The notes below the pieces were generated by a model. The model ran no database searches. It was not told the DNA's origin and saw only the letters and a list, made by a program, of their open reading frames with translations. The translations under genes were made by a program, and so were the position numbers. A stretch of DNA of 8,991 bases. Source: a virus. Its lineage: Duplodnaviria > Heunggongvirae > Uroviricota > Caudoviricetes. The stretch lies in the IMG/VR virus record IMGVR_UViG_2675903578_000015. One strand, 5' to 3'. Shown piece by piece: positions 2,801 through 8,991 of this stretch; the first letter of the stretch is position 1; each line of letters starts with the position of its first letter.

Positions 2801-5393
2801 TTGCATATTCCTTAGCCCAGCGGGGCAGTGATAACGTCTTAATAGCTGGCCATTCATCGGTATTGAGGCAGTCAGCCAGGGTTCGCAGATTGCGGTGATA
2901 TTCCAGCTGACCTGCCAGTTTTGCTTCTTCGCCCATCATGAAAATTTCAACCGGATAACGTCCGCATTCAATAGTTGTGCTGGCAACCAGAAAAACGAAA
3001 GTTGGCTGCACTCCAAACTGTGCTTCATAACCGTCACTGTAGAATGCATCCTGAACGTGATAGCGGTAGTCGTAATAAGCGGTTTTGAATCGTTGAATAT
3101 CCGCCGTAGTTTTCACGTCCATGATCCAGTGAAATTCAGGGATAATTTTGTCCGGACGGCACCGACACAAAATTGCTGTTTCAGGATCTTCCCAGTAAAT
3201 TGATGATTCAGCGTGTCCGGCGCTTTCAACAAGCCATTGCCCCAGCGGCAAAGCCATAACGCTCTGATACATGAGTTCAATTTTCCGGCCTTCTTCGGCA
3301 GTGATAACCGTTTTTCCTGTGCTTGCGCATTCCCTCAGAAACGCTTTCTCTTCTTCTTTTCCGGAGTTTGTCCGGCGGTTAAATTCAGGTGCTACGATAA
3401 AGCGGTTACTGAATTCTTCCGGCTCAAGTACCCGGCAGTGGAAAGCGGTTCCTAAATCGAGCGTTTTTGTCTTTGTGGTGTCCACGGGGGCATTTTTACG
3501 CCACAAATACAGTGCCGGAGTATCAGCAATGTCATCGAGCTGAGACTTACTGACACCGGGACCCGCGTGGTAATTCTCATTCGAAATTCCGTAATAAATA
3601 CCTGGCTCTATGTCTTCTACGATTACGGGATCTGCGACTTCGCCAGTTTCATCACTGCAATCGCGATGCGGATCGCTGCCAGCATTCTCATTGTGCGGAT
3701 GTTCAGCGCCTTCCATTTCCTCCGGATCATTTTCCTTAGCTTCAACCTGACTCTCTTCATCGAATGTTTCCTGGTATGTTGCGTCGCCCATCACCGCACC
3801 ACAGTCAGGGCAGTTATCCCCGCCAGTCTGGCCGCAGGCATTGCAGGCTATTTCCGGTTCCTGTTGCACTACTGGCTCAGGTTGATTCATATCCGGGCTG
3901 GTTTTTTCCGTTTCTGGCTGGTTCTGGTACACACAATCGCGAGTCTGGATCCCCTTTACCCATTTCGGATCGTTCGGGTCGCTAATTCCGTCAACAAATT
4001 CACCACGTGATGCAGCAAGCAATTTATCGGCATCGACAGGATTTTTTGATGGAATGTTTTTCCGGGCTTCATGGAGTTCTGCCCGCAGTTCCTGATATTT
4101 CGCATCAACAGAATTTACCTGTGACTGAGCATCCAGCGGCTGCGTGTCCTGATGATGTTCAGTTGCGTCCGGTTCCATTGTTTCAGCCTCTCCCTGTTCA
4201 ACTGCCGTTGTTCCAGATGGTTGCGGTTTTTCTTCATCATCCTGTTTTCCTTCTTCTGTTACTCGCTGCGGCATCGGGGCAGAGGAGCGACCGCAGGCAA
4301 TATCCACGATTTCCGGATCAGGGTTGGCATGATCGGTTTCAGTCAGTACTTTGTTCAGATATTCAGTGACGTGCGCGGGGATGACCTCGATCCCAATTGG
4401 TGCTTCTTTTACGGACGCAACCACGATGGCGCGGGAATAATCCAGCCCGCCAGGCATGGTGATGAATTTGTCGCGGAAAACAGAAAAGGGCGGTTTATTT
4501 TCAGCGATAATTTCCTCAATGCGTTTAGCGTGTGCCGGATGAAGGTTATAGATGTCCAGATCCATTGAACGGGCCAGTACGCCAGTGGCTACGTCCCGCG
4601 CCAGTGACGTCAGATCGTGTACGAAACCTTCGCCGCGATCGGTGAGGTTTCCGCCGCCAGCATTAGCACCGGAAGCCGTGCGAGTGATGTGTGAAACACG
4701 ATTACCCTTCATCCACTCTTTTGTCAGCAGTCCTCGATCGGTGTAGTCAGCGTTCAGGTATGCTTCGAAAAAAGCAGTTATCAGTCCCAGGTTTGAATTA
4801 CCAGGATTAGGGAAAACTTTGTCAGTGTCACGAACCAGTTTGTGGAGTTCGCGAATTTCCAGCGGGTCGAGCAGGCTGGTTTTGTGGGAAACAGCCAGGG
4901 CAGTAACAGCCGGTAGTTCTTCAGCCCGAGCAATGTGTAATGCCTGGAGTCCGTCGCGTGAAACGTGCGTTACCGGTTTTTCGCTGCCGTGTTGAGCAAG
5001 CCAACGAATGGGCAGTTCCTGGCCAGAAATTGGGAGTAGCATATTCTCCTCAATCTCAGTCATGTCTTCGCCGTTGACGTTGGTATTGCCTTGATAGTGA
5101 GCGTTGTCTGGTGCTGCTCCCGGTTTTAGTTCCCATGTCATGGAGTCTTTGCTGAGTTGATAGCGTTCACTCCAGGTAAAATCGATCTCACCTTCAGCGG
5201 GCAGGTCATTAACGACAGGAAAATTCGTGGCAACAGCTTTAAAATAGCTGCTCAGTTTTTTACCTGACTTAACGATCAGGTAGTCCAGAGTGGCACAGGT
5301 CGATTCAAAATCGTTGCTTGCCCACAGGACGACGTCAGGTTCACCGGATGATTTTTTCGCTTTCCGTAACAGGAAGAGTGGTTTTGTGCTCAT
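2793..5393 (-). CDS. recE: RecE exonuclease VIII, 866 aa; C-terminal third is the 5'-3' dsDNA exonuclease domain
   Basis: Uninterrupted 866-codon minus-strand ORF, ATG at 5393-5391, TAA at 2795-2793. The 3' end overlaps the recT start by 8 nt (ATGACTAA). Sequence matches recalled RecE. Confidence 0.95.
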
Positions 5394-5464
5394 TGTTTTT
5401 TAACCTCAACTCAGATTAAAATTCGTTTTGTTCAGTGAATGATCTTGCCGGATACACACTGTTC

Positions 5465-5489
5465 ATAGCCTGCGCCATACGCAGGCTAT
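5465..5489 (-). promoter_or_regulatory. Perfect 10-bp stem, 5-nt loop hairpin (ATAGCCTGCG-CCATA-CGCAGGCTAT) in the racC-recE spacer
   Basis: Read directly: 5465-5474 is the exact reverse complement of 5480-5489. It sits 5 nt after the racC stop. A T-rich tail follows on the plus strand only (TTTCTTTCAGATTT); none follows on the minus strand. Confidence 0.45.
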
Positions 5490-5494
5490 TTCTT

Positions 5495-5770
5495 TCAGAT
5501 TTCACCTTTTAATTTCATTGCAATTAGAGTTGCCAGAAATTCGGCTTTTTTTTCTGCGGGCAGATTCTTTCCGATATGCACCAGGCACATTTTTTTGACA
5601 CCTTCATCAAGTGTTTTTACGTTGCCTGATGGACCATCGATATCAACCACAGTGAATGGGGTTTCTTTATTTTCTGTTTTAATTACGTAGCCAATGCGCT
5701 TTCCTTCCAGATTCACCTCGTGAACAATGTCATCGGTAGTTACAACAGTGGCTTCATAATTGGTAATCAT
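5495..5770 (-). CDS. racC: Small prophage protein of unknown function, 91 aa (MITNYEATVVTTDD...)
   Basis: ATG at 5770-5768 preceded by a strong AAGGAG with 6-nt spacer. The 107-aa N-terminal extension in the ORF track has no ribosome-binding site. Matches recalled RacC. Confidence 0.85.
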   Translation of the reverse strand: MITNYEATVVTTDDIVHEVNLEGKRIGYVIKTENKETPFTVVDIDGPSGNVKTLDEGVKKMCLVHIGKNLPAEKKAEFLATLIAMKLKGEI

Positions 5771-5844
5771 GTTTTTCTCCTTAATTAAGGTTGAGCGAAT
5801 ACCTGCCATTTCTGGCATAAATTCAGTTTCGAATAGTCAATTAA

Positions 5845-6015
5845 TTAAAGTTCATGTGCCATCTGGTCTTTTTCGGCACAAGCTTCACTGCAATATTTTC
5901 TCGGTTCGTCTTTTGATAAAATCCCGTGCATGAAGTGAAGCATTCTTTCAATAGCTTTGCTTTCTTCAACGTCTTTTTTGCAAAGGTGGTAAGCACATTT
6001 TATTTTCTTAGTCAT
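5845..6015 (-). CDS. ydaE: Small Cys-rich protein, 56 aa ([14 protein letters not shown]...CSEACAEKDQMAHEL), putative zinc ribbon
   Basis: Below the ORF-track size cutoff; found by manual translation. ATG at 6015-6013 preceded by GGAG with 8-nt spacer, TAA stop at 5847-5845. Start overlaps the kilR stop as TGATG. Cys spacing is C-x4-C...C-x3-C. Matches recalled YdaE. Confidence 0.8.
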   Translation of the reverse strand: MTKKIKCAYHLCKKDVEESKAIERMLHFMHGILSKDEPRKYCSEACAEKDQMAHEL

Positions 6016-6236
6016 CACCATGACTCCGCCTTTACAGGTAAACCATCACGACCGAGGAAGACTTTAATCATGCGGTCAGTAATGCATGTTTTTGTGGTCA
6101 GGTTACGAATATATAGTTTTCGCTTTTTAATATTGTTTGCCGAGGCAATATATGTCCGGCCTTCATGAAGAACATAATCGCCAGGAGTCACACACTGACG
6201 TGGTATTTCATCAGTTCCGAAGTGATGTGCAATCAT
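6015..6236 (-). CDS. kilR: KilR cell-division inhibitor (FtsZ-targeting Kil protein of Rac), 73 aa
   Basis: ATG at 6236-6234 preceded by GGAG with 6-nt spacer. The 77-aa version starting at 6248 has no ribosome-binding site. Translation [32 protein letters not shown]... matches recalled KilR. Confidence 0.85.
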
Positions 6237-6411
6237 AATTATCTCCATTTTTACAAATGAACTTTGTTGATGCGGTGCCTGGTGCCTCCAGGTGACTGCA
6301 ACCAGTTAACAATTACAGTCGGCTTTCCCACCCAAACCAATAAGGACTAACATGACTTTTAACTGTGCCACGTGCGCTTAGCCGCATTCACCGCATCACA
6401 AAATTCACTTT

Positions 6412-6459
6412 AAAAAGGGCGGACATCAGCCGAACTTCAAGAAAAAAACTGATGCCGCC
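6412..6459 (-). terminator. Candidate orientation-specific intrinsic terminator or attenuator upstream of kilR
   Basis: Inverted repeat GGCGGACATCAG (6418-6429) / CTGATGCCGCC (6449-6459), 11 bp with one bulged A, separated by a 19-nt A-rich loop. On the minus-strand transcript the stem is followed directly by CUUUUU (plus 6412-6417); there is no U-tract on the plus strand. The large loop is atypical. Confidence 0.3.
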
Positions 6460-6677
6460 AGGACTACACACAGCAATGTCGTTATTTACAACCGGAGGCG
6501 CACTCCCACCATTTAAATTTAACAGACAAGACCGACTCTTTATGGATATCGGAAATGCGCCTTCGTGTTGTGCCCGGTTTTATTTCACCACCTCCGGGCT
6601 TCGGTGGTCTCGGCTATACCCCTACAGCGAGAGCTTGTGTTAACATTTCAATACCCTTACAGTTGAGAGTTATTGAT

Positions 6678-7097
6678 ATGTTGGATGTATTTACTCCATT
6701 GTTGAAACTTTTTGCTAACGAGCCACTCGAAATACTTATGTATACGATTATCATTTTTGGTCTCACTCTCTGGCTGATACCGAAAGAGTTTACTGTCGCA
6801 TTCAATGCTTANNNNNNNNNNNNNNNNNNNNNNNNNNNNNNNNNNNNNNNNNNNNNNNNNNNNNNNNNNNNNNNNNNNNNNNNNNNNNNNNNNNNNNNNN
6901 NNNNNNNNNNNNNNNNNNNNNNNNNNNNNNNNNNNNNNNNNNNNNNNNNNNNNNNNNNNNNNNNNNNNNNNNNNNNNNNNNNNNNNNNNNNNNNNNNNNN
7001 NNNNNNNNNNNNNNNNNNNNNNNNNNNNNNNNNNNNNNNNNNNNNNNNNNNNNNNNNNNNNNNNNNNNNNNNNNNNNNNNNNNNNACATCAGAGTGA
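6678..7097 (+). CDS. sieB: Superinfection exclusion protein B, inner-membrane protein; most of the body is masked
   Basis: ATG at 6678 with GAGAG upstream. The visible N-terminus MLDVFTPLLKLFANEPLEILMYTIIIFGLTLWLIPKEFTVAFNA contains a hydrophobic transmembrane-like segment. The frame reopens after the mask as ..TSE-TGA at 7095-7097. Matches recalled Rac SieB; exact start and length are uncertain. Confidence 0.7.
   Translation: MLDVFTPLLKLFANEPLEILMYTIIIFGLTLWLIPKEFTVAFNAXXXXXXXXXXXXXXXXXXXXXXXXXXXXXXXXXXXXXXXXXXXXXXXXXXXXXXXXXXXXXXXXXXXXXXXXXXXXXXXXXXXXXXXXXXXXTSE
6812..7085. other. Masked or undetermined bases (274 N)
   Basis: Run of n characters; hides about 90 codons of sieB. Confidence 1.
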
Positions 7098-7187
7098 TAG
7101 CGCAAACTGTTCTTATTATCTCGTCACCGAAAAATACTCCCATTTTATGAAGTTATTCTGGAACAGCAGGAGTAGACGTTTTAATCG

Positions 7188-7343
7188 TTAGCTTACTGTG
7201 TGCTTCTCCAACCATCGGCGCGCACCAGTTTCGGTTTTAAATGTTTTGCTTTTGGTATACGTCATGGCAGTGAACGTTCCATCCTGGTTGGGGAACACGC
7301 CGCACACCAGGGATTCGTTGTTGCCGAGGTCGATTTTTTGCAT
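7188..7343 (-). CDS. ydaF: Small prophage protein of unknown function, 51 aa (MQKIDLGNNESLVCGVFPNQDGTFTAMTYTKSKTFKTETGARDWLKRHTVS)
   Basis: Below the ORF-track cutoff; found by manual translation of the minus strand. ATG at 7343-7341, TAA at 7190-7188, only a weak GAGA upstream. Closely resembles recalled YdaF but differs at the C-terminus. Confidence 0.65.
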   Translation of the reverse strand: MQKIDLGNNESLVCGVFPNQDGTFTAMTYTKSKTFKTETGARRWLEKHTVS

Positions 7344-7353
7344 TTTGCGAATC

Positions 7354-7488
7354 TCACATCTTGTTGCTGTGTATAGCGACTTCTGCCTGCCAGAGATCCC
7401 AGTCGTTGCTGCGTAAAGCCTGCACAGCCTGGTTGTAAGTGATACCGCAACAATCCATCAAATACTGAACTACTTCGTAATGCACCAT
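7354..7488 (-). CDS. ydaG: Small prophage protein of unknown function, 44 aa (MVHYEVVQYLMDCCGITYNQAVQALRSNDWDLWQAEVAIHSNKM)
   Basis: ATG at 7488-7486 preceded by GGGAGAG, TGA at 7356-7354. The 60-aa N-terminal extension in the ORF track has no ribosome-binding site. Matches recalled YdaG. Confidence 0.75.
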   Translation of the reverse strand: MVHYEVVQYLMDCCGITYNQAVQALRSNDWDLWQAEVAIHSNKM

Positions 7489-7654
7489 CTTATCTCTCCC
7501 CTTAACGCCGGGTGGCGGAACTGAAACCTGCTGCACTGCAAAATCTGAACCCTGCCGTCATGTTCATACGCCTCGGGCTGGCTACTTAACCCCTGACCAC
7601 TGCCTGGTAACTCGAAGTATTGCCCTGCGTTCTGTGGGGCGGGGTGGGTTGGTA

Positions 7655-7712
7655 GGTATATAATGTACTTTGTGTTCATTGATGTAAAGTACTATAAGTA
7701 CATTTTGTGTGT
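7655..7712 (-). promoter_or_regulatory. PL/OL-like early leftward promoter-operator region downstream of racR
   Basis: Minus-strand hexamers TTTACA (plus 7683-7688) - 17 nt - CATTAT (plus 7660-7665). Flanked by ATGTACT (7663-7669), its inverted copy AGTACAT (7697-7703) and the palindrome AGTACT (7688-7693). A perfect TATAAT on the plus strand at 7659-7664 has no matching -35. Confidence 0.4.
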
Positions 7713-7778
7713 AAAAAAATGAGATGGGATAAAGTGAAGCACAAACCCGGAGGGGGACGCTACCGGATTTATGCTGGT

Positions 7779-8198
7779 TTAAGAGGCTTTTTGTTTTTTC
7801 TTTCGTGCTAGCTCTTCGTAAATTGCATTGTACTTCTGTTTTTTCTCCTCAAGAGTTTTTAAAAGTTCATCTGTCTCACTGTCAGGGAGCTCGTCCAGAA
7901 GGTCAATGATGATTTTTTGTCTTGGATTTAACTCCTGATAGAAACGTACCTGTCCACTTTCTTCTGTATCCTCTCCCAAAAGATAGGTTGGTGTTGTTCC
8001 AATGAGTGTTGCTAATTCCCTTAATTTCTCTCGGCGAGGAATTGTTTCGCCATTAAACCATTTGCTAACCGCTTTTGGTGTTAATTTCATTCGACGGGCA
8101 ATTTCTGCCTGCCTTCCATGTTGTTCATAACCAGCGTTTTCACAGGCTAGCGCAAGCCTACTGGCGAACTCTTTACGCGCTTTATCTTCATGAACCAT
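7779..8198 (-). CDS. racR: RacR prophage repressor, HTH XRE/cI-like; 139 aa from the ATG (145 aa if the in-frame GTG at 8216 is used)
   Basis: Minus-strand ORF with TAA at 7781-7779. Helix-turn-helix segment QAEIARRMKLTPKAVSKWFNGE. Neither candidate start has a Shine-Dalgarno. Matches recalled RacR. Confidence 0.85.
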   Translation of the reverse strand: MVHEDKARKEFASRLALACENAGYEQHGRQAEIARRMKLTPKAVSKWFNGETIPRREKLRELATLIGTTPTYLLGEDTEESGQVRFYQELNPRQKIIIDLLDELPDSETDELLKTLEEKKQKYNAIYEELARKKKQKAS

Positions 8199-8277
8199 AA
8201 GTTCAATGATATTCACTCTTGAATGTACTGTCAGTTCTGTTATAGCATGTACTCAAAGTTCACATTGTGAGGGTGAT
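8199..8277. promoter_or_regulatory. OR-like divergent control region between racR and ydaS
   Basis: 79-bp spacer between divergent start codons. Direct repeats of ATGTACT at 8223-8229 and 8247-8253, 24 bp apart. Plus-strand promoter-like TTGAAT (8219-8224) - 16 nt - TATAGC (8241-8246). GAGGG ribosome-binding site at 8269-8273 for ydaS. Confidence 0.45.
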
Positions 8278-8574
8278 ATGAACCAGAAAACACTTGAAGA
8301 TGTAATNNNNNNNNNNNNNNNNNNNNNNNNNNNNNNNNNNNNNNNNNNNNNNNNNNNNNNNNNNNNNNNNNNNNNNNNNNNNNNNNNNNNNNNNNNNNNN
8401 NNNNNNNNNNNNNNNNNNNNNNNNNNNNNNNNNNNNNNNNNNNNNNNNNNNNNNNNNNNNNNNNNNNNNNNNNNNNNNNNNNNNNNNNNNNNNNNNNNNN
8501 NNNNNNNNNNNNNNNNNNNNNNNNNNNNNNNNNNNNNNNNNNNNNNNNNNNNNNNNNNNNNNNNNNNNNNNNNN
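8278..8574 (+). CDS. ydaS: Cro-like small regulator/toxin partner YdaS; only the first 9 codons (MNQKTLEDV) are visible
   Basis: ATG at 8278 with GAGGG 4 nt upstream, divergent from racR. The 8574 end is inferred from the recalled length of about 98 aa and lies in the masked block, so it is not observed. Confidence 0.5.
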
Positions 8575-8587
8575 NNNNNNNNNNNNN
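8307..8587. other. Masked or undetermined bases (281 N)
   Basis: Run of n characters; hides most of ydaS and the start of ydaT. The 261-aa ORF 8206-8991 in the track is an artefact of reading through N. Confidence 1.
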
Positions 8588-8991
8588 ACATCGAGTCAGT
8601 GTTGTTAGCCCTGGCAGCCGAAAAAGGGCAGGCATGGGTAGCCAATGCCATTACTGAAGAATATCTGCGCCAGGGGGGCGGCGAATTGCCCCTGGTACCA
8701 GGCAAGGACTGGAATAATCAGCAGAATATCTATCACCGTTGGTTGAAAGGTGAAACGAAAACGCAAAGAGAAAAAATTCAGAAGCTGATCCCAGCAATTC
8801 TGGCAATCCTTCCGCGCGAGCTGCGTCACCGACTCTGCATCTTCGATACCCTGGAACGCCGTGCATTACTGGCGGCGCAGGAAGCGTTAAGTACGGCAAT
8901 TGATGCGCATGATGATGCAGTCCAAGCCGTTTACCGGAAAGCGCATTTCAGCGGCGGCGGGTCTTCCGACGATTCTGTCATTGTTCATTAA
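8569..8991 (+). CDS. ydaT: YdaT, CII-like or toxic prophage protein; 133 C-terminal residues visible (IESVLLALAAEKGQAWVANAITEEYLRQGGGELPLVPGKDW...SDDSVIVH)
   Basis: Frame reopens at 8590 and runs to TAA at 8989-8991. The 8569 start is inferred from the recalled 140-aa length and lies in the mask. Matches recalled YdaT. Confidence 0.7.
   Translation, partial: XXXXXXXIESVLLALAAEKGQAWVANAITEEYLRQGGGELPLVPGKDWNNQQNIYHRWLKGETKTQREKIQKLIPAILAILPRELRHRLCIFDTLERRALLAAQEALSTAIDAHDDAVQAVYRKAHFSGGGSSDDSVIVH

Follow-up and report, generated by a model that had tools for sequence, protein, structure and literature searches.

The CI repressors of the lambdoid phages HK022 and 933W carry a RecA-cleavable C-terminal domain. 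The immunity region of HK022, presumably the one treated by Carlson and Little in 1993, shares its operator consensus, its 24- and 33-bp site spacing and the position of oR3 over the repressor ATG with the locus described here. The reference used for HK022 was the annotation of GenBank X16093 (locus L004) together with the summary in PMC8053113. In X16093, the oR sites (TGAACCATAAGTTCA, TGTACTATCAGTTCC and TGAACCATAAGTTCA) are spaced 24 and 33 bp apart with oR3 over the cI ATG, and the oL sites (TGTACTTAAAGTTCA and AGTACCAATAGTACA) lie 24 bp apart, bracketing the −35 element of pL as in the present locus. For HK022, PMC8053113 also reports a third oL site and one more operator, located about 300 bp downstream of OR. 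The operators of 933W, studied with those of phi24B by the Koudelka laboratory, are likewise 15-bp symmetric sites with a critical G-A/T-A-C run, one of which (OR3) overlaps the cI start, and only two OL sites are present, as here; unlike the present sites, they favor C/G at the outermost position (CGTAC...GTACG). Operator mutagenesis in 933W found positions 2-5 (G, A/T, A, C) to be critical and position 1 and the center to be tolerant (PMC3317979). PMC3317979 and PMC5977221 describe the binding of the 933W repressor to adjacent sites as non-cooperative, and the latter also describes autocleavage of lambdoid repressors.

Shorter repressors occupy the cI position in other prophages. In DicA/DicC of Qin and PaaR2/YdaS of CP-933P, both of them bistable and CI/Cro-like, operators occur at OR as well as at a PL-type promoter, and the repressors lack a peptidase domain, like the present one. 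The antirepressor Rem relieves DicA without any need for RecA, and PaaR2 is unresponsive to mitomycin C. PaaR2 operators are GTTTAGTAA palindromes, unlike those described below, and boxes of the DicA type (TGTTAGY-N4-RCTAACA-like) are absent from the DNA analyzed here. In the Rac prophage of E. coli K-12, the RacR operators (T/A)TAGGC-n3-GCCTA(T/A) have been mapped by DNase I footprinting, with O3 over the racR ATG (PMC9638921), and YdaT binds inside the intergenic region (PMC11879457). The logic of K-12 Rac, with repressor boxes at the left and right promoters and one over the repressor ATG, is shared by the present locus. In K-12 Rac, the repressor mRNA is moreover leaderless and expression of the repressor is driven by a YdaT box where ydaT begins, traits that the present locus probably has in common with it.

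The window, i.e., the whole 8,991-nucleotide stretch of the Caudoviricetes record IMGVR_UViG_2675903578_000015, contains a repressor locus of a Rac-type prophage adjacent to ttcA, with ydaG on one side and the divergent early-right operon on the other, as judged from the annotation of locus L002 and K-12 synteny. The locus has a lambda-type CI/Cro architecture, in which the repressor lies between OL/PL and OR/PR, cro is divergent and multipartite operators are shared by the two sides. Five 17-bp sites in it are interpreted, with a probability of about 0.88, as the operators of an HK022/933W-type lambda-style switch carried on a cassette that replaces racR-ydaS.

Putative operator sites and promoters around the repressor gene

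The features of the locus, in window positions, are as follows.
7655 to 8587: immunity cassette, replacing the K-12 racR-ydaS cassette; left junction 7654/7655
7660 to 7688, minus strand: PL-like promoter from a promoter scan; −35 TTTACA (7688-7683), 17-bp spacer, −10 CATTAT (7665-7660)
7663 to 7679: putative operator OL1, ATGTACT TTG TGTTCAT; exact core, between −35 and −10 of the leftward PL-like promoter
7687 to 7703: putative operator OL2, AAGTACT ATA AGTACAT; abuts the PL −35, 24 bp from OL1
7779 to 8198, minus strand: repressor gene, 139 aa; HK022-CI-type HTH and DicA-type C-terminal helical tail
8190 to 8206: putative operator OR3, ATGAACC ATA AGTTCAA; over the repressor start codon (ATG 8198-8196, minus strand)
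8206 to 8234, minus strand: PRM-like promoter from the promoter scan; −35 CTGACA (8234-8229), 17-bp spacer, −10 TATCAT (8211-8206)
8219 to 8246, plus strand: PR-like promoter read from the sequence; −35 TTGAAT (8219-8224), 16-bp spacer, −10 TATAGC (8241-8246)
8223 to 8239: putative operator OR2, ATGTACT GTC AGTTCTG; one core mismatch, fills the PR-like promoter spacer
8247 to 8263: putative operator OR1, ATGTACT CAA AGTTCAC; exact core, directly downstream of the PR −10 and over the predicted start
8278 to 8306, plus strand: 5' end of the Cro-like gene, translated as MNQKTLEDV...; the remainder is masked by N

The original prediction started from copies of the 7-mer ATGTACT, taken as candidate operator half-sites. 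It had placed them correctly: ATGTACT occurs on the plus strand at 7663-7669, 8223-8229 and 8247-8253, its reverse complement AGTACAT at 7697-7703 and the palindrome AGTACT at 7688-7693. An exhaustive count over both strands of the whole window returned four copies of ATGTACT/AGTACAT against 0.67 expected, a number reached in 2 of 200 shuffles, and all four are confined to the two non-coding regions flanking the repressor gene, as had been claimed. The 6/7 match TTGTACT that had been seen elsewhere lies at 7828-7834, within the repressor coding sequence, and has no partner half-site. Every exact copy is one half of a 17-bp pseudo-palindrome with the core TGWAC-N5-GTWCA, more fully the 15-bp TGWACY-N3-RGTWCA, and this 15-17-bp element, not the 7-mer, is the unit of recognition.

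When all 17-mers of the window were scored against ATGTACT-N3-AGTACAT, the top five fell within the two flanking regions, the highest (13/14) being OL2. An independent repeat finder recovered a 15-nt family, spaced by 24 bp, whose members start at 7663, 8223 and 8247; its repeats D2 and D4-D7 lack dyad partners. The exact core is found three times in the window (0.025 expected) and six times at up to one mismatch (0.85 expected; P about 0.0007), and a site pair exactly 24 bp apart, of which the window holds two, arose in 0 of 1500 simulations. The sixth match at up to one mismatch is at 4742 in recE, where the window and K-12 Rac are 99.8% identical, and was taken as chance because K-12 Rac carries this stretch with a different repressor. 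A 17-mer at 5839 (10/14) is also present in K-12 Rac and was likewise judged to be chance. No counterpart of the third oL site or of the distal operator of HK022 was found at up to two mismatches in the window or at up to one mismatch in the unmasked L002, and this near-identical prophage contains no additional clustered sites.

All five sites, together with the pR and pL hexamers, align in register with the annotated oR1-3, oL, pR and pL of HK022. OL1 aligns with oL TGTACTTAAAGTTCA, OL2 with oL AGTACCAATAGTACA, OR2 with oR2 TGTACTATCAGTTCC and OR1, 24 bp from OR2, with oR1; the 15-bp core of OR3, which follows OR2 at 33 bp, is identical to that of HK022 oR3 and oR1, TGAACCATAAGTTCA. The PL-like promoter is at the position of the annotated HK022 pL (−35 TTTACA, −10 CATCAT), its TTTACA is invariant in alignment A2, and it would transcribe ydaG, ydaF, kilR ... 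recET ... xisR/intR. The PR-like hexamers align with HK022 pR (−35 TTGACT, −10 CATAAT), and this promoter would transcribe the cro-like gene, ydaT and downstream genes. It was missed by the promoter scan because the final base of its −10 element is C; a TG is present at 8238-8239 within its 16-bp spacer, and the −10 reads TATATT in the ETEC1730 variant. This homology to pR and pL bears out the predicted overlap of the 7-mers with early promoters.

The PRM assignment draws on the promoter scan and on conservation: the TAnnnT of its −10 (T89, A90 and T94 of alignment A1) does not vary among seven relatives. The predicted PRM start is at or adjoining the A of the repressor ATG (8198), and reading of the sequence revealed no Shine-Dalgarno sequence upstream of this ATG; the repressor mRNA is probably leaderless, as has been demonstrated for K-12 racR and paaR2. 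Because the predicted PRM −35 (8234-8229) falls within OR2 and is about 33 bp away from the predicted start, activation of PRM by OR2 occupancy, as in lambda, is not a safe assumption.

The geometry recurs in diverged phages. In Klebsiella phage 2b, Citrobacter phage Omnitron and Salmonella phage SI8, whose repressor N-terminal domains are 72-40% identical to that of the window, cores stand at −64, −40 and −7 from the repressor ATG, and Omnitron has an additional 24-bp pair downstream. A site equivalent to OR3 at −7 from the ATG was found in L007, L008, L010 and L004. The footprint was made from diverged phage records, with the exclusion of Salmonella phage S9-5 (L009), whose record start cuts its OR, and the alignment columns without any variation are those of the half-site cores, the PRM −10 TAnnnT and the PR and PL −35 elements. 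Comparison of the flanking regions across relatives had been proposed as a check on the original prediction, and the operator cores proved invariant in four cassette variants: variable positions number 0 of 50 in the cores, 8 of 35 in spacers and edges and 41 of 142 in other non-coding DNA (Fisher 1e-6), and OR3 and OR2 are entirely unchanged. The pattern of substitutions agrees with the mutagenesis of 933W operator positions. The HK022 oR/oL homology, the common geometry in four diverged phages and the conservation of the cores uphold the reading of the 7-mers as operator half-sites, and the proposed lambda-like OL/OR layout is supported by five sites on both flanks of the repressor in a geometry common to relatives.

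The same repeats might instead reflect promoter architecture shared by PL and PR, contacts of RNA polymerase without a dedicated repressor, or chance. A 22-nt repeat (D3) joins a −10-like element to both OL1 and OR1, and all sites overlap promoter hexamers, as such an origin would have it. However, OR3 sits on the start codon, outside any promoter duplicate, and dyad symmetry, a 24/33-bp register maintained across genera and invariant cores with free spacers are signatures of operators. Chance is excluded statistically, and no Rfam family was found at the sites, RalA at 1557-1735 being the sole curated RNA match in the window. Promoter architecture or chance is thus a very improbable source of the repeats, and they are treated below as operators of a dedicated repressor.

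Repressor, Cro-like protein and comparison with K-12 Rac

The 139-aa repressor matches HTH families of Pfam including HTH_3, plus a weak sub-threshold MgtE_N hit (16.9 bits, cutoff 25.9) at residues 97-122, and the Pfam search found no Peptidase_S24 (LexA/S24-type autocleavage) domain in it. It is 100% identical to the 'CI repressor' of phage Tritos, for which a literature search returned no paper, and a genome-contig search with it hit a single locus, in Shigella flexneri (L006). Its N-terminal domain shares 47% identity with the HK022 CI domain (99 aa aligned, E 6e-32) and about 51% with that of the 933W/phi24B repressor. The recognition segments, TPKAVSKWFNGE in the window and TPKAISKWFNGE in HK022 CI, are nearly identical, and K42, S45, K46, W47, F48 and N49 of the recognition helix are invariant across six relatives; the helix begins with P41 in the window repressor and with S41 in 933W. 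Both phage repressors are longer: the HK022 cI coding sequence (L004 494-1201) corresponds to about 235 aa, with a record note 'AA 1-208', and that of the phi24B record spans 307-1014. In place of the cleavable C-terminal domain of HK022 CI, the window repressor has a DicA-type helical tail. DicA is its best NCBIfam match (NF007257, 56.8 bits against a cutoff of 101, aligned over 29-137 of 139), BLASTP with K-12 DicA gives 29% identity over 112 aa (E 5e-15), and residues 88-137 align to the DicA tail. Judged by these alignments, the repressor is DicA-related yet below the DicA family cutoff, and it looks like a domain hybrid with an HK022-type DNA-binding domain on a DicA-type tail.

The divergent gene is masked in the window, and its full 84-aa product was taken from L002, whose locus is 99.8% identical to the window; the listed ORF at 8206-8991 (261 aa) is an artefact that reads through the N mask. 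The product shares 62% identity with HK022 Cro (73 aa aligned, E 2e-34). This is nearer than the repressor is to its own HK022 counterpart (47%), and lambdoid Cro and CI share operators, so the sites might be thought to serve mainly or only the Cro-like protein, the 139-aa protein recognizing another sequence. Another factor such as YdaT could be considered as well, in view of its binding in the K-12 Rac intergenic region (PMC11879457). Against the Cro-like protein as sole user, the repressor carries almost the recognition segment of HK022 CI, a user of this operator family, and the sites stay with the repressor gene even where a phage has a different cro and different neighboring genes; against YdaT, neither repressor-flanking region contains a WTGATT-N6-AATCAW box at up to two mismatches. 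It is very improbable that the repressor is not the principal ligand.

The original prediction took the repressor gene for racR and the sites for RacR operators, the K-12 Rac repressor of the toxic ydaS and ydaT genes. The genomic position is indeed the same, from ydaG to cro-like/ydaT in a Rac-type prophage next to ttcA, and the prophage backbone, integration neighborhood and ydaT are as in K-12; window and K-12 Rac are 98-99.8% identical at 4507-7654 and at 8588-8991. Between these two stretches, however, there is no homology. The RacR equivalog NF049929 (NCBIfam, cutoff 200 bits) was not matched by the window repressor at E<=0.001, whereas K-12 RacR scores 244.6 bits, and BLASTP similarity to RacR is limited to the HTH, with 12 identities in 33 residues. 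The label racR is accordingly withdrawn. The divergent gene is of the HK022-cro type and gives no YdaS_toxin match in Pfam, whereas K-12 YdaS does; the repressor and Cro families of K-12 Rac are unrelated to those of the window. The statement that the RacR operator was uncharacterized is outdated in light of the published footprints (PMC9638921), and the footprinted boxes do not occur in the window, whereas K-12 Rac, in which RacR boxes occupy the corresponding positions to the left and right of racR, has six at up to two mismatches and lacks ATGTACT-type sites. The K-12 intergenic region holds four RacR boxes in 123 bp, and that of the window holds three sites of its own type in 79 bp. That the sites belong to RacR is therefore extremely unlikely, and the HK022/933W-type assignment is retained.

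Of 5426 E. coli genomes, 1047 (~19%) contain the complete cassette segment 7655-8306. The right junction of the cassette falls within the masked positions 8307-8587, probably at the YdaT box where ydaT begins: in the Shigella relative, similarity to K-12 returns only with a 30-nt island at the beginning of ydaT. The island includes this box, and the box is present at the same place in Tritos. The genome surroundings of HK022 differ from those of the window, where the prophage is of the Rac type (recET, kilR, ydaT).

Proposed switch and significance of the cassette

In the mechanism proposed for the switch, the binding of the repressor, the activity of the promoters, any cooperativity, the leaderless start and the route of induction are inferred. 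Repressor dimers on OR1 and OR2 would cover the spacer and start of the PR-like promoter, and the cro-like gene, ydaT and downstream genes would therefore be silenced. On the left, dimers on OL1 and OL2 would cover the PL-like spacer and abut the −35, and this occupancy would silence ydaG, ydaF, kilR, recET and xisR/intR. The 24-bp spacing would put the two dimers of a pair on roughly the same helix face, as in HK022 and lambda, which would favor pairwise cooperativity. However, the C-terminal domain is unlike that of HK022 CI, so that cooperativity and looping are not simply transferable. Since OR3 lies over the start codon, just past the conserved −10 element, negative autoregulation is expected. 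The HK022-type Cro-like protein would most likely lock the opposite state through the same sites. Given the DicA-type tail and the lack of a RecA-cleavable domain, derepression would proceed via an antirepressor or by stochastic or stress-induced switching, and not by SOS autocleavage.

The HK022 operator type has long been known, and the set in the window adds no new mechanism. A wider proposal joins three elements, namely that the repressor is a natural hybrid of HK022 specificity and a DicA tail, that it confers SOS-independent cross-immunity with HK022 and that cassettes are swapped at fixed joints; as a whole, this remains tentative and rather doubtful. Cross-immunity to phages with HK022 immunity is possible because the recognition segment and the cores are almost those of HK022. 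If the proposal is true, cryptic prophages with this cassette could be derepressed or cross-repressed by phages of HK022 immunity, and cassettes would be swapped among Rac-, Qin- and Tritos-type backbones, with the left joint at the PL start and, on Rac-type backbones, the right joint at the YdaT box.

A "Rac" prophage with K-12-like flanks may carry a repressor other than racR, and recognition of this corrects a tempting mis-annotation; in E. coli genomes, the two cassette regulators are annotated as generic HTH proteins only. Results on K-12 RacR, on its operators and on its cross-talk with C proteins should not be carried over to the ~19% of E. coli genomes with the cassette, for which the present analysis provides a concrete and testable operator map. 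The locus also offers an example of immunity-module exchange, in which the repressor moves together with the operators that flank it and the CII-like ydaT and its box remain in the backbone.

Predicted operator sites flanking the repressor gene

The 7-mer ATGTACT occurs in the window on the plus strand at 7663, 8223 and 8247 and on the minus strand at 7697-7703, with AGTACT at 7688-7693. The original prediction interpreted these repeats as operator half-sites around racR, and their non-random occurrence was borne out by an exhaustive count (four copies against 0.67 expected), every copy falling within the two non-coding stretches that flank a leftward ORF encoding a 139-aa repressor. Extended outward, each copy becomes a 17-bp pseudo-palindrome of the form ATGTACT-N3-AGTACAT, the 7-mer itself spanning positions 1-6 of a 15-bp site and one base outside it. 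The five predicted operators are the highest-scoring 17-mers when the entire window is scored, and they include OR3, which had previously been missed.

Predicted operators and neighbouring genes
OL1: 7663-7679, ATGTACTTTGTGTTCAT
OL2: 7687-7703, AAGTACTATAAGTACAT
Repressor gene: 7779-8198, minus strand
OR3: 8190-8206, ATGAACCATAAGTTCAA
OR2: 8223-8239, ATGTACTGTCAGTTCTG
OR1: 8247-8263, ATGTACTCAAAGTTCAC
cro-like gene: start at 8278, divergent from the repressor gene, masked beyond 8306

A 15-nt repeat family with 24-bp spacing was also recovered by an independent repeat finder. The self-complementary core used for statistics, TGWAC-N5-GTWCA, is found in the window three times exactly (0.025 expected) and six times with at most one mismatch (0.85 expected, P about 0.0007), and two core pairs are spaced by exactly 24 bp, versus 0 of 1500 simulations with any such pair. 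The sixth core with at most one mismatch, at 4742 in recE, was rejected as probably a chance match because its surroundings are 99.8% identical to K-12 Rac.

Homology with HK022 and 933W operators

A protein annotated as CI repressor in Escherichia phage Tritos matches the window repressor at 100% identity. The first ~100 residues of the latter share 47% identity with HK022 CI and about 51% with 933W/phi24B CI. The recognition segment is TPKAVSKWFNGE in the window repressor versus TPKAISKWFNGE in HK022, and K42, S45, K46, W47, F48 and N49 are invariant in the repressor alignment (six relatives). By sequence comparison, the ATGTACT sites are homologues of the HK022 operators annotated in GenBank X16093, lying in the same register, with the OR3 core identical to that of oR3.

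HK022 operators, and promoter elements of the window and HK022
HK022 oR1: TGAACCATAAGTTCA
HK022 oR2: TGTACTATCAGTTCC, 24 bp from oR1
HK022 oR3: TGAACCATAAGTTCA, 33 bp from oR2, centred on the cI ATG
HK022 oL: TGTACTTAAAGTTCA
HK022 oL, other site: AGTACCAATAGTACA, 24 bp from the first oL
PR -35: TTGAAT (8219-8224) in the window; TTGACT in HK022
PR -10: TATAGC (8241-8246) in the window; CATAAT in HK022
PL -35: TTTACA (7688-7683) in the window; TTTACA in HK022
PL -10: CATTAT (7665-7660) in the window; CATCAT in HK022

In Klebsiella phage 2b LV-2017, Citrobacter phage Omnitron and Salmonella phage SI8, the repressor N-terminal domains of which are 40-72% identical to that of the window (tblastn and alignment), cores lie at -64, -40 and -7 from the repressor ATG, and Omnitron possesses a further core pair with 24-bp spacing downstream of the repressor. 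An alignment of seven OR sequences is invariant at the half-site cores, at TTG in the PR -35 and at TAnnnT (8211-8206), the -10 of a PRM-like promoter in a promoter scan; the OL alignment is invariant at the cores and at TTTACA. Among four cassette variants (window, Tritos, Shigella and an 86%-identical ETEC copy), 0 of 50 core positions vary, compared with 8 of 35 spacer or edge positions and 41 of 142 remaining non-coding positions (Fisher 1e-6). HK022 homology and this conservation give good support to reading the repeats as operator half-sites arranged as OL and OR. In ETEC1730, the source of the 86%-identical variant, the PR -10 is TATATT where the window has TATAGC (aligned to 8241-8248) and the OR1 edge is GTGTACT where the window has ATGTACT; PR of ETEC1730 may be stronger.

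Mutagenesis of the 933W repressor identified operator positions 2-5 (G, A/T, A, C) as critical, with T or C at position 6 and tolerance at position 1 and the centre (PMC3317979), and the invariant cores and variable spacers and edges of the window agree with this pattern. This operator family goes back to the HK022 and 933W work, and the supposed novelty of the operator is not supported. HK022 CI reportedly binds adjacent operators cooperatively and loops OL to OR, and an extra operator about 300 bp downstream of OR is involved in immunity, according to PMC8053113, which cites Carlson & Little 1993 for the former. The HK022 sequence GGTACTAAAAGTACA (L004 163-177), about 270 bp past oR1, is probably this extra operator; no counterpart was found in the cassette, in either the window or the unmasked copy from E. 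coli strain 1428.

The cassette in relation to RacR and K-12 Rac

The gene enclosed by the sites is not racR: the encoded protein resembles the 158-aa RacR only over 33 HTH residues and does not match the NCBIfam RacR equivalog model, to which K-12 RacR scores 244.6 bits. The divergent gene, for which the name ydaS is likewise not supported, encodes an 84-aa protein that is 62% identical to HK022 Cro (unmasked strain 1428 copy) and gives no YdaS-family match, whereas K-12 YdaS gives one. Repressor residues ~88-137 show homology with the tail that forms the C terminus of DicA, a short repressor of Qin. DicA is also the best full-length NCBIfam match (56.8 bits; cutoff 101), and no S24 peptidase domain was found with Pfam. 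With its HK022-like first ~100 residues, the repressor therefore looks like an HK022-type DNA-binding domain joined to a DicA-type tail.

The RacR operator, believed not to be established, was published by DNase I footprinting as three inverted repeats, (T/A)TAGGC-n3-GCCTA(T/A), of which O3 overlies the racR ATG, the main racR transcript being leaderless (PMC9638921); a later paper describes four operators (PMC11879457). The window contains no such box, and K-12 Rac contains no ATGTACT site. In the K-12 MG1655 Rac locus (L001), RacR boxes are located in the racR-ydaS intergenic region (3736, 3772, 3797 and 3823), and a further RacR-type pair at 3131 and 3156 lies just inside the left joint of the cassette. 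In Qin, too, DicA-type boxes flank dicA. Thus, each immunity cassette brings its own operators for both promoters, which is the arrangement expected if the ATGTACT sites are those of the repressor whose gene they flank.

The K-12 pair (TAGGTAATGCCTA and TAGGCTATGCCTA, 25 bp apart; L001 3131-3168, MG1655 1419630-1419667) is the counterpart of window ~7660-7700 and brackets, in the ydaG-racR interval, a leftward promoter close to consensus, TTGACA-17-TATAGT, with which it makes up an OL/PL-like unit; a text search of the K-12 RacR operator paper found no mention of kilR, ydaG or sieB. The Qin inverted repeats (L011 2352-2434 and 2843-2935) are TGTTAGTCATAACTAACA, TTAGCATTAGCTAA, GTTAGCTATAGCATAC and GTTAGTCATGGCTAAT, and those downstream of dicA surround TTGACC, a -35-like hexamer.

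As judged from an annotated locus of E. coli strain 1428 (L002) that is 99.8% identical, the window is a Rac-type prophage adjoining ttcA, with the gene order intR, xisR, rcbA, ralR, recT, recE, racC, ydaE, kilR, sieB, ydaF, ydaG, repressor, cro-like, ydaT. It is 98-99.8% identical to K-12 MG1655 Rac at 4507-7654 and at 8588-8991 (ydaT), with zero DNA homology to that prophage between 7654 and 8588. Of 5426 complete E. coli genomes, 1047 contain the entire cassette (7655-8306). The sequenced phage Tritos (OV696610) carries the same cassette at about 96% identity, with Qin-like dicF and dicB in its PL operon and a different YdaT-like gene, annotated Rha, in its right operon; the cassette therefore moves between backbones.

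Three runs of the window are masked (1756-2006, 6812-7085 and 8307-8587). The listed ORF at 8206-8991 (261 aa) is an artefact reading across the third, where the real genes are cro-like (from 8278) and ydaT (ending at 8991). Relative to L002, the coordinate offset falls from 632 at intR to 601 at 7400-8306 and to about 561 where ydaT ends, which requires indels of about 31 and 40 nt between the two sequences, one or both of them inside a masked run. The RalA antitoxin sRNA (Rfam RF02694, 225 bits) maps to 1557-1735 on the plus strand, partly overlapping the neighbourhood of the first masked run.

Proposed regulation

Beyond the site map, homologies and conservation, we infer the mechanism throughout. 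As originally proposed, the sites overlap promoter elements. OR2 occupies the predicted PR spacer and OR1 overlies the PR start, and bound repressor should shut the rightward operon (cro-like, ydaT, ydaU, ydaV and beyond). OL1 occupies the PL spacer and OL2 abuts the PL -35, and repressor at OL should shut the leftward operon (ydaG, ydaF, kilR, recET, xisR/intR). The Cro-like protein probably uses the same five sites. OR3 overlies the repressor ATG, which the conserved PRM -10 precedes by 8 nt, and no Shine-Dalgarno sequence lies upstream of this ATG, which suggests a leaderless, autorepressed repressor mRNA, as shown for K-12 racR and paaR2. The scan-predicted PRM -35 lies inside OR2, so lambda-type activation of PRM from OR2 is doubtful. 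The 933W repressor, a relative of the window's, is non-cooperative according to PMC3317979 and PMC5977221, and any cooperativity here would rest on a repressor tail unlike that of HK022. Because the repressor lacks a peptidase domain, induction is likely RecA-independent, by analogy with PaaR2, which is unresponsive to mitomycin C, and DicA, which is relieved RecA-independently by the antirepressor Rem.

The YdaT box as published, (A/T)TGATTCATGAAAATCAA, is located where ydaT begins, corresponding to masked 8307-8587 of the window, and is also present in K-12 (L001 4178-4195) and Tritos; the K-12 box activates a reverse promoter towards racR (PMC11879457). In the Shigella flexneri relative (L006), the box (2241-2258, reverse complement) lies exactly on a 30-nt island, the sole K-12 homology at the right edge of the cassette. 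It looks like a recurrent recombination joint keeping a PRE-like input with ydaT, and the CII-like establishment input is therefore probably retained in the chimera. At 1504-1521, 51 bp upstream of xisR, is a YdaT-box-like palindrome, TTGATTATTAATAATCAG, with one mismatch to TTGATT-N6-AATCAA (chance expectation 0.04 in the window). It is conserved in K-12 Rac (L013 404-421), and PMC11879457 does not mention it; by analogy with lambda PI, it could act as a CII-like (YdaT) input to expression of xis/int.

The novelty is limited to the finding that a common, generically annotated cassette of Rac-like prophages falls within the HK022/933W operator family and combines it with a DicA-type tail.
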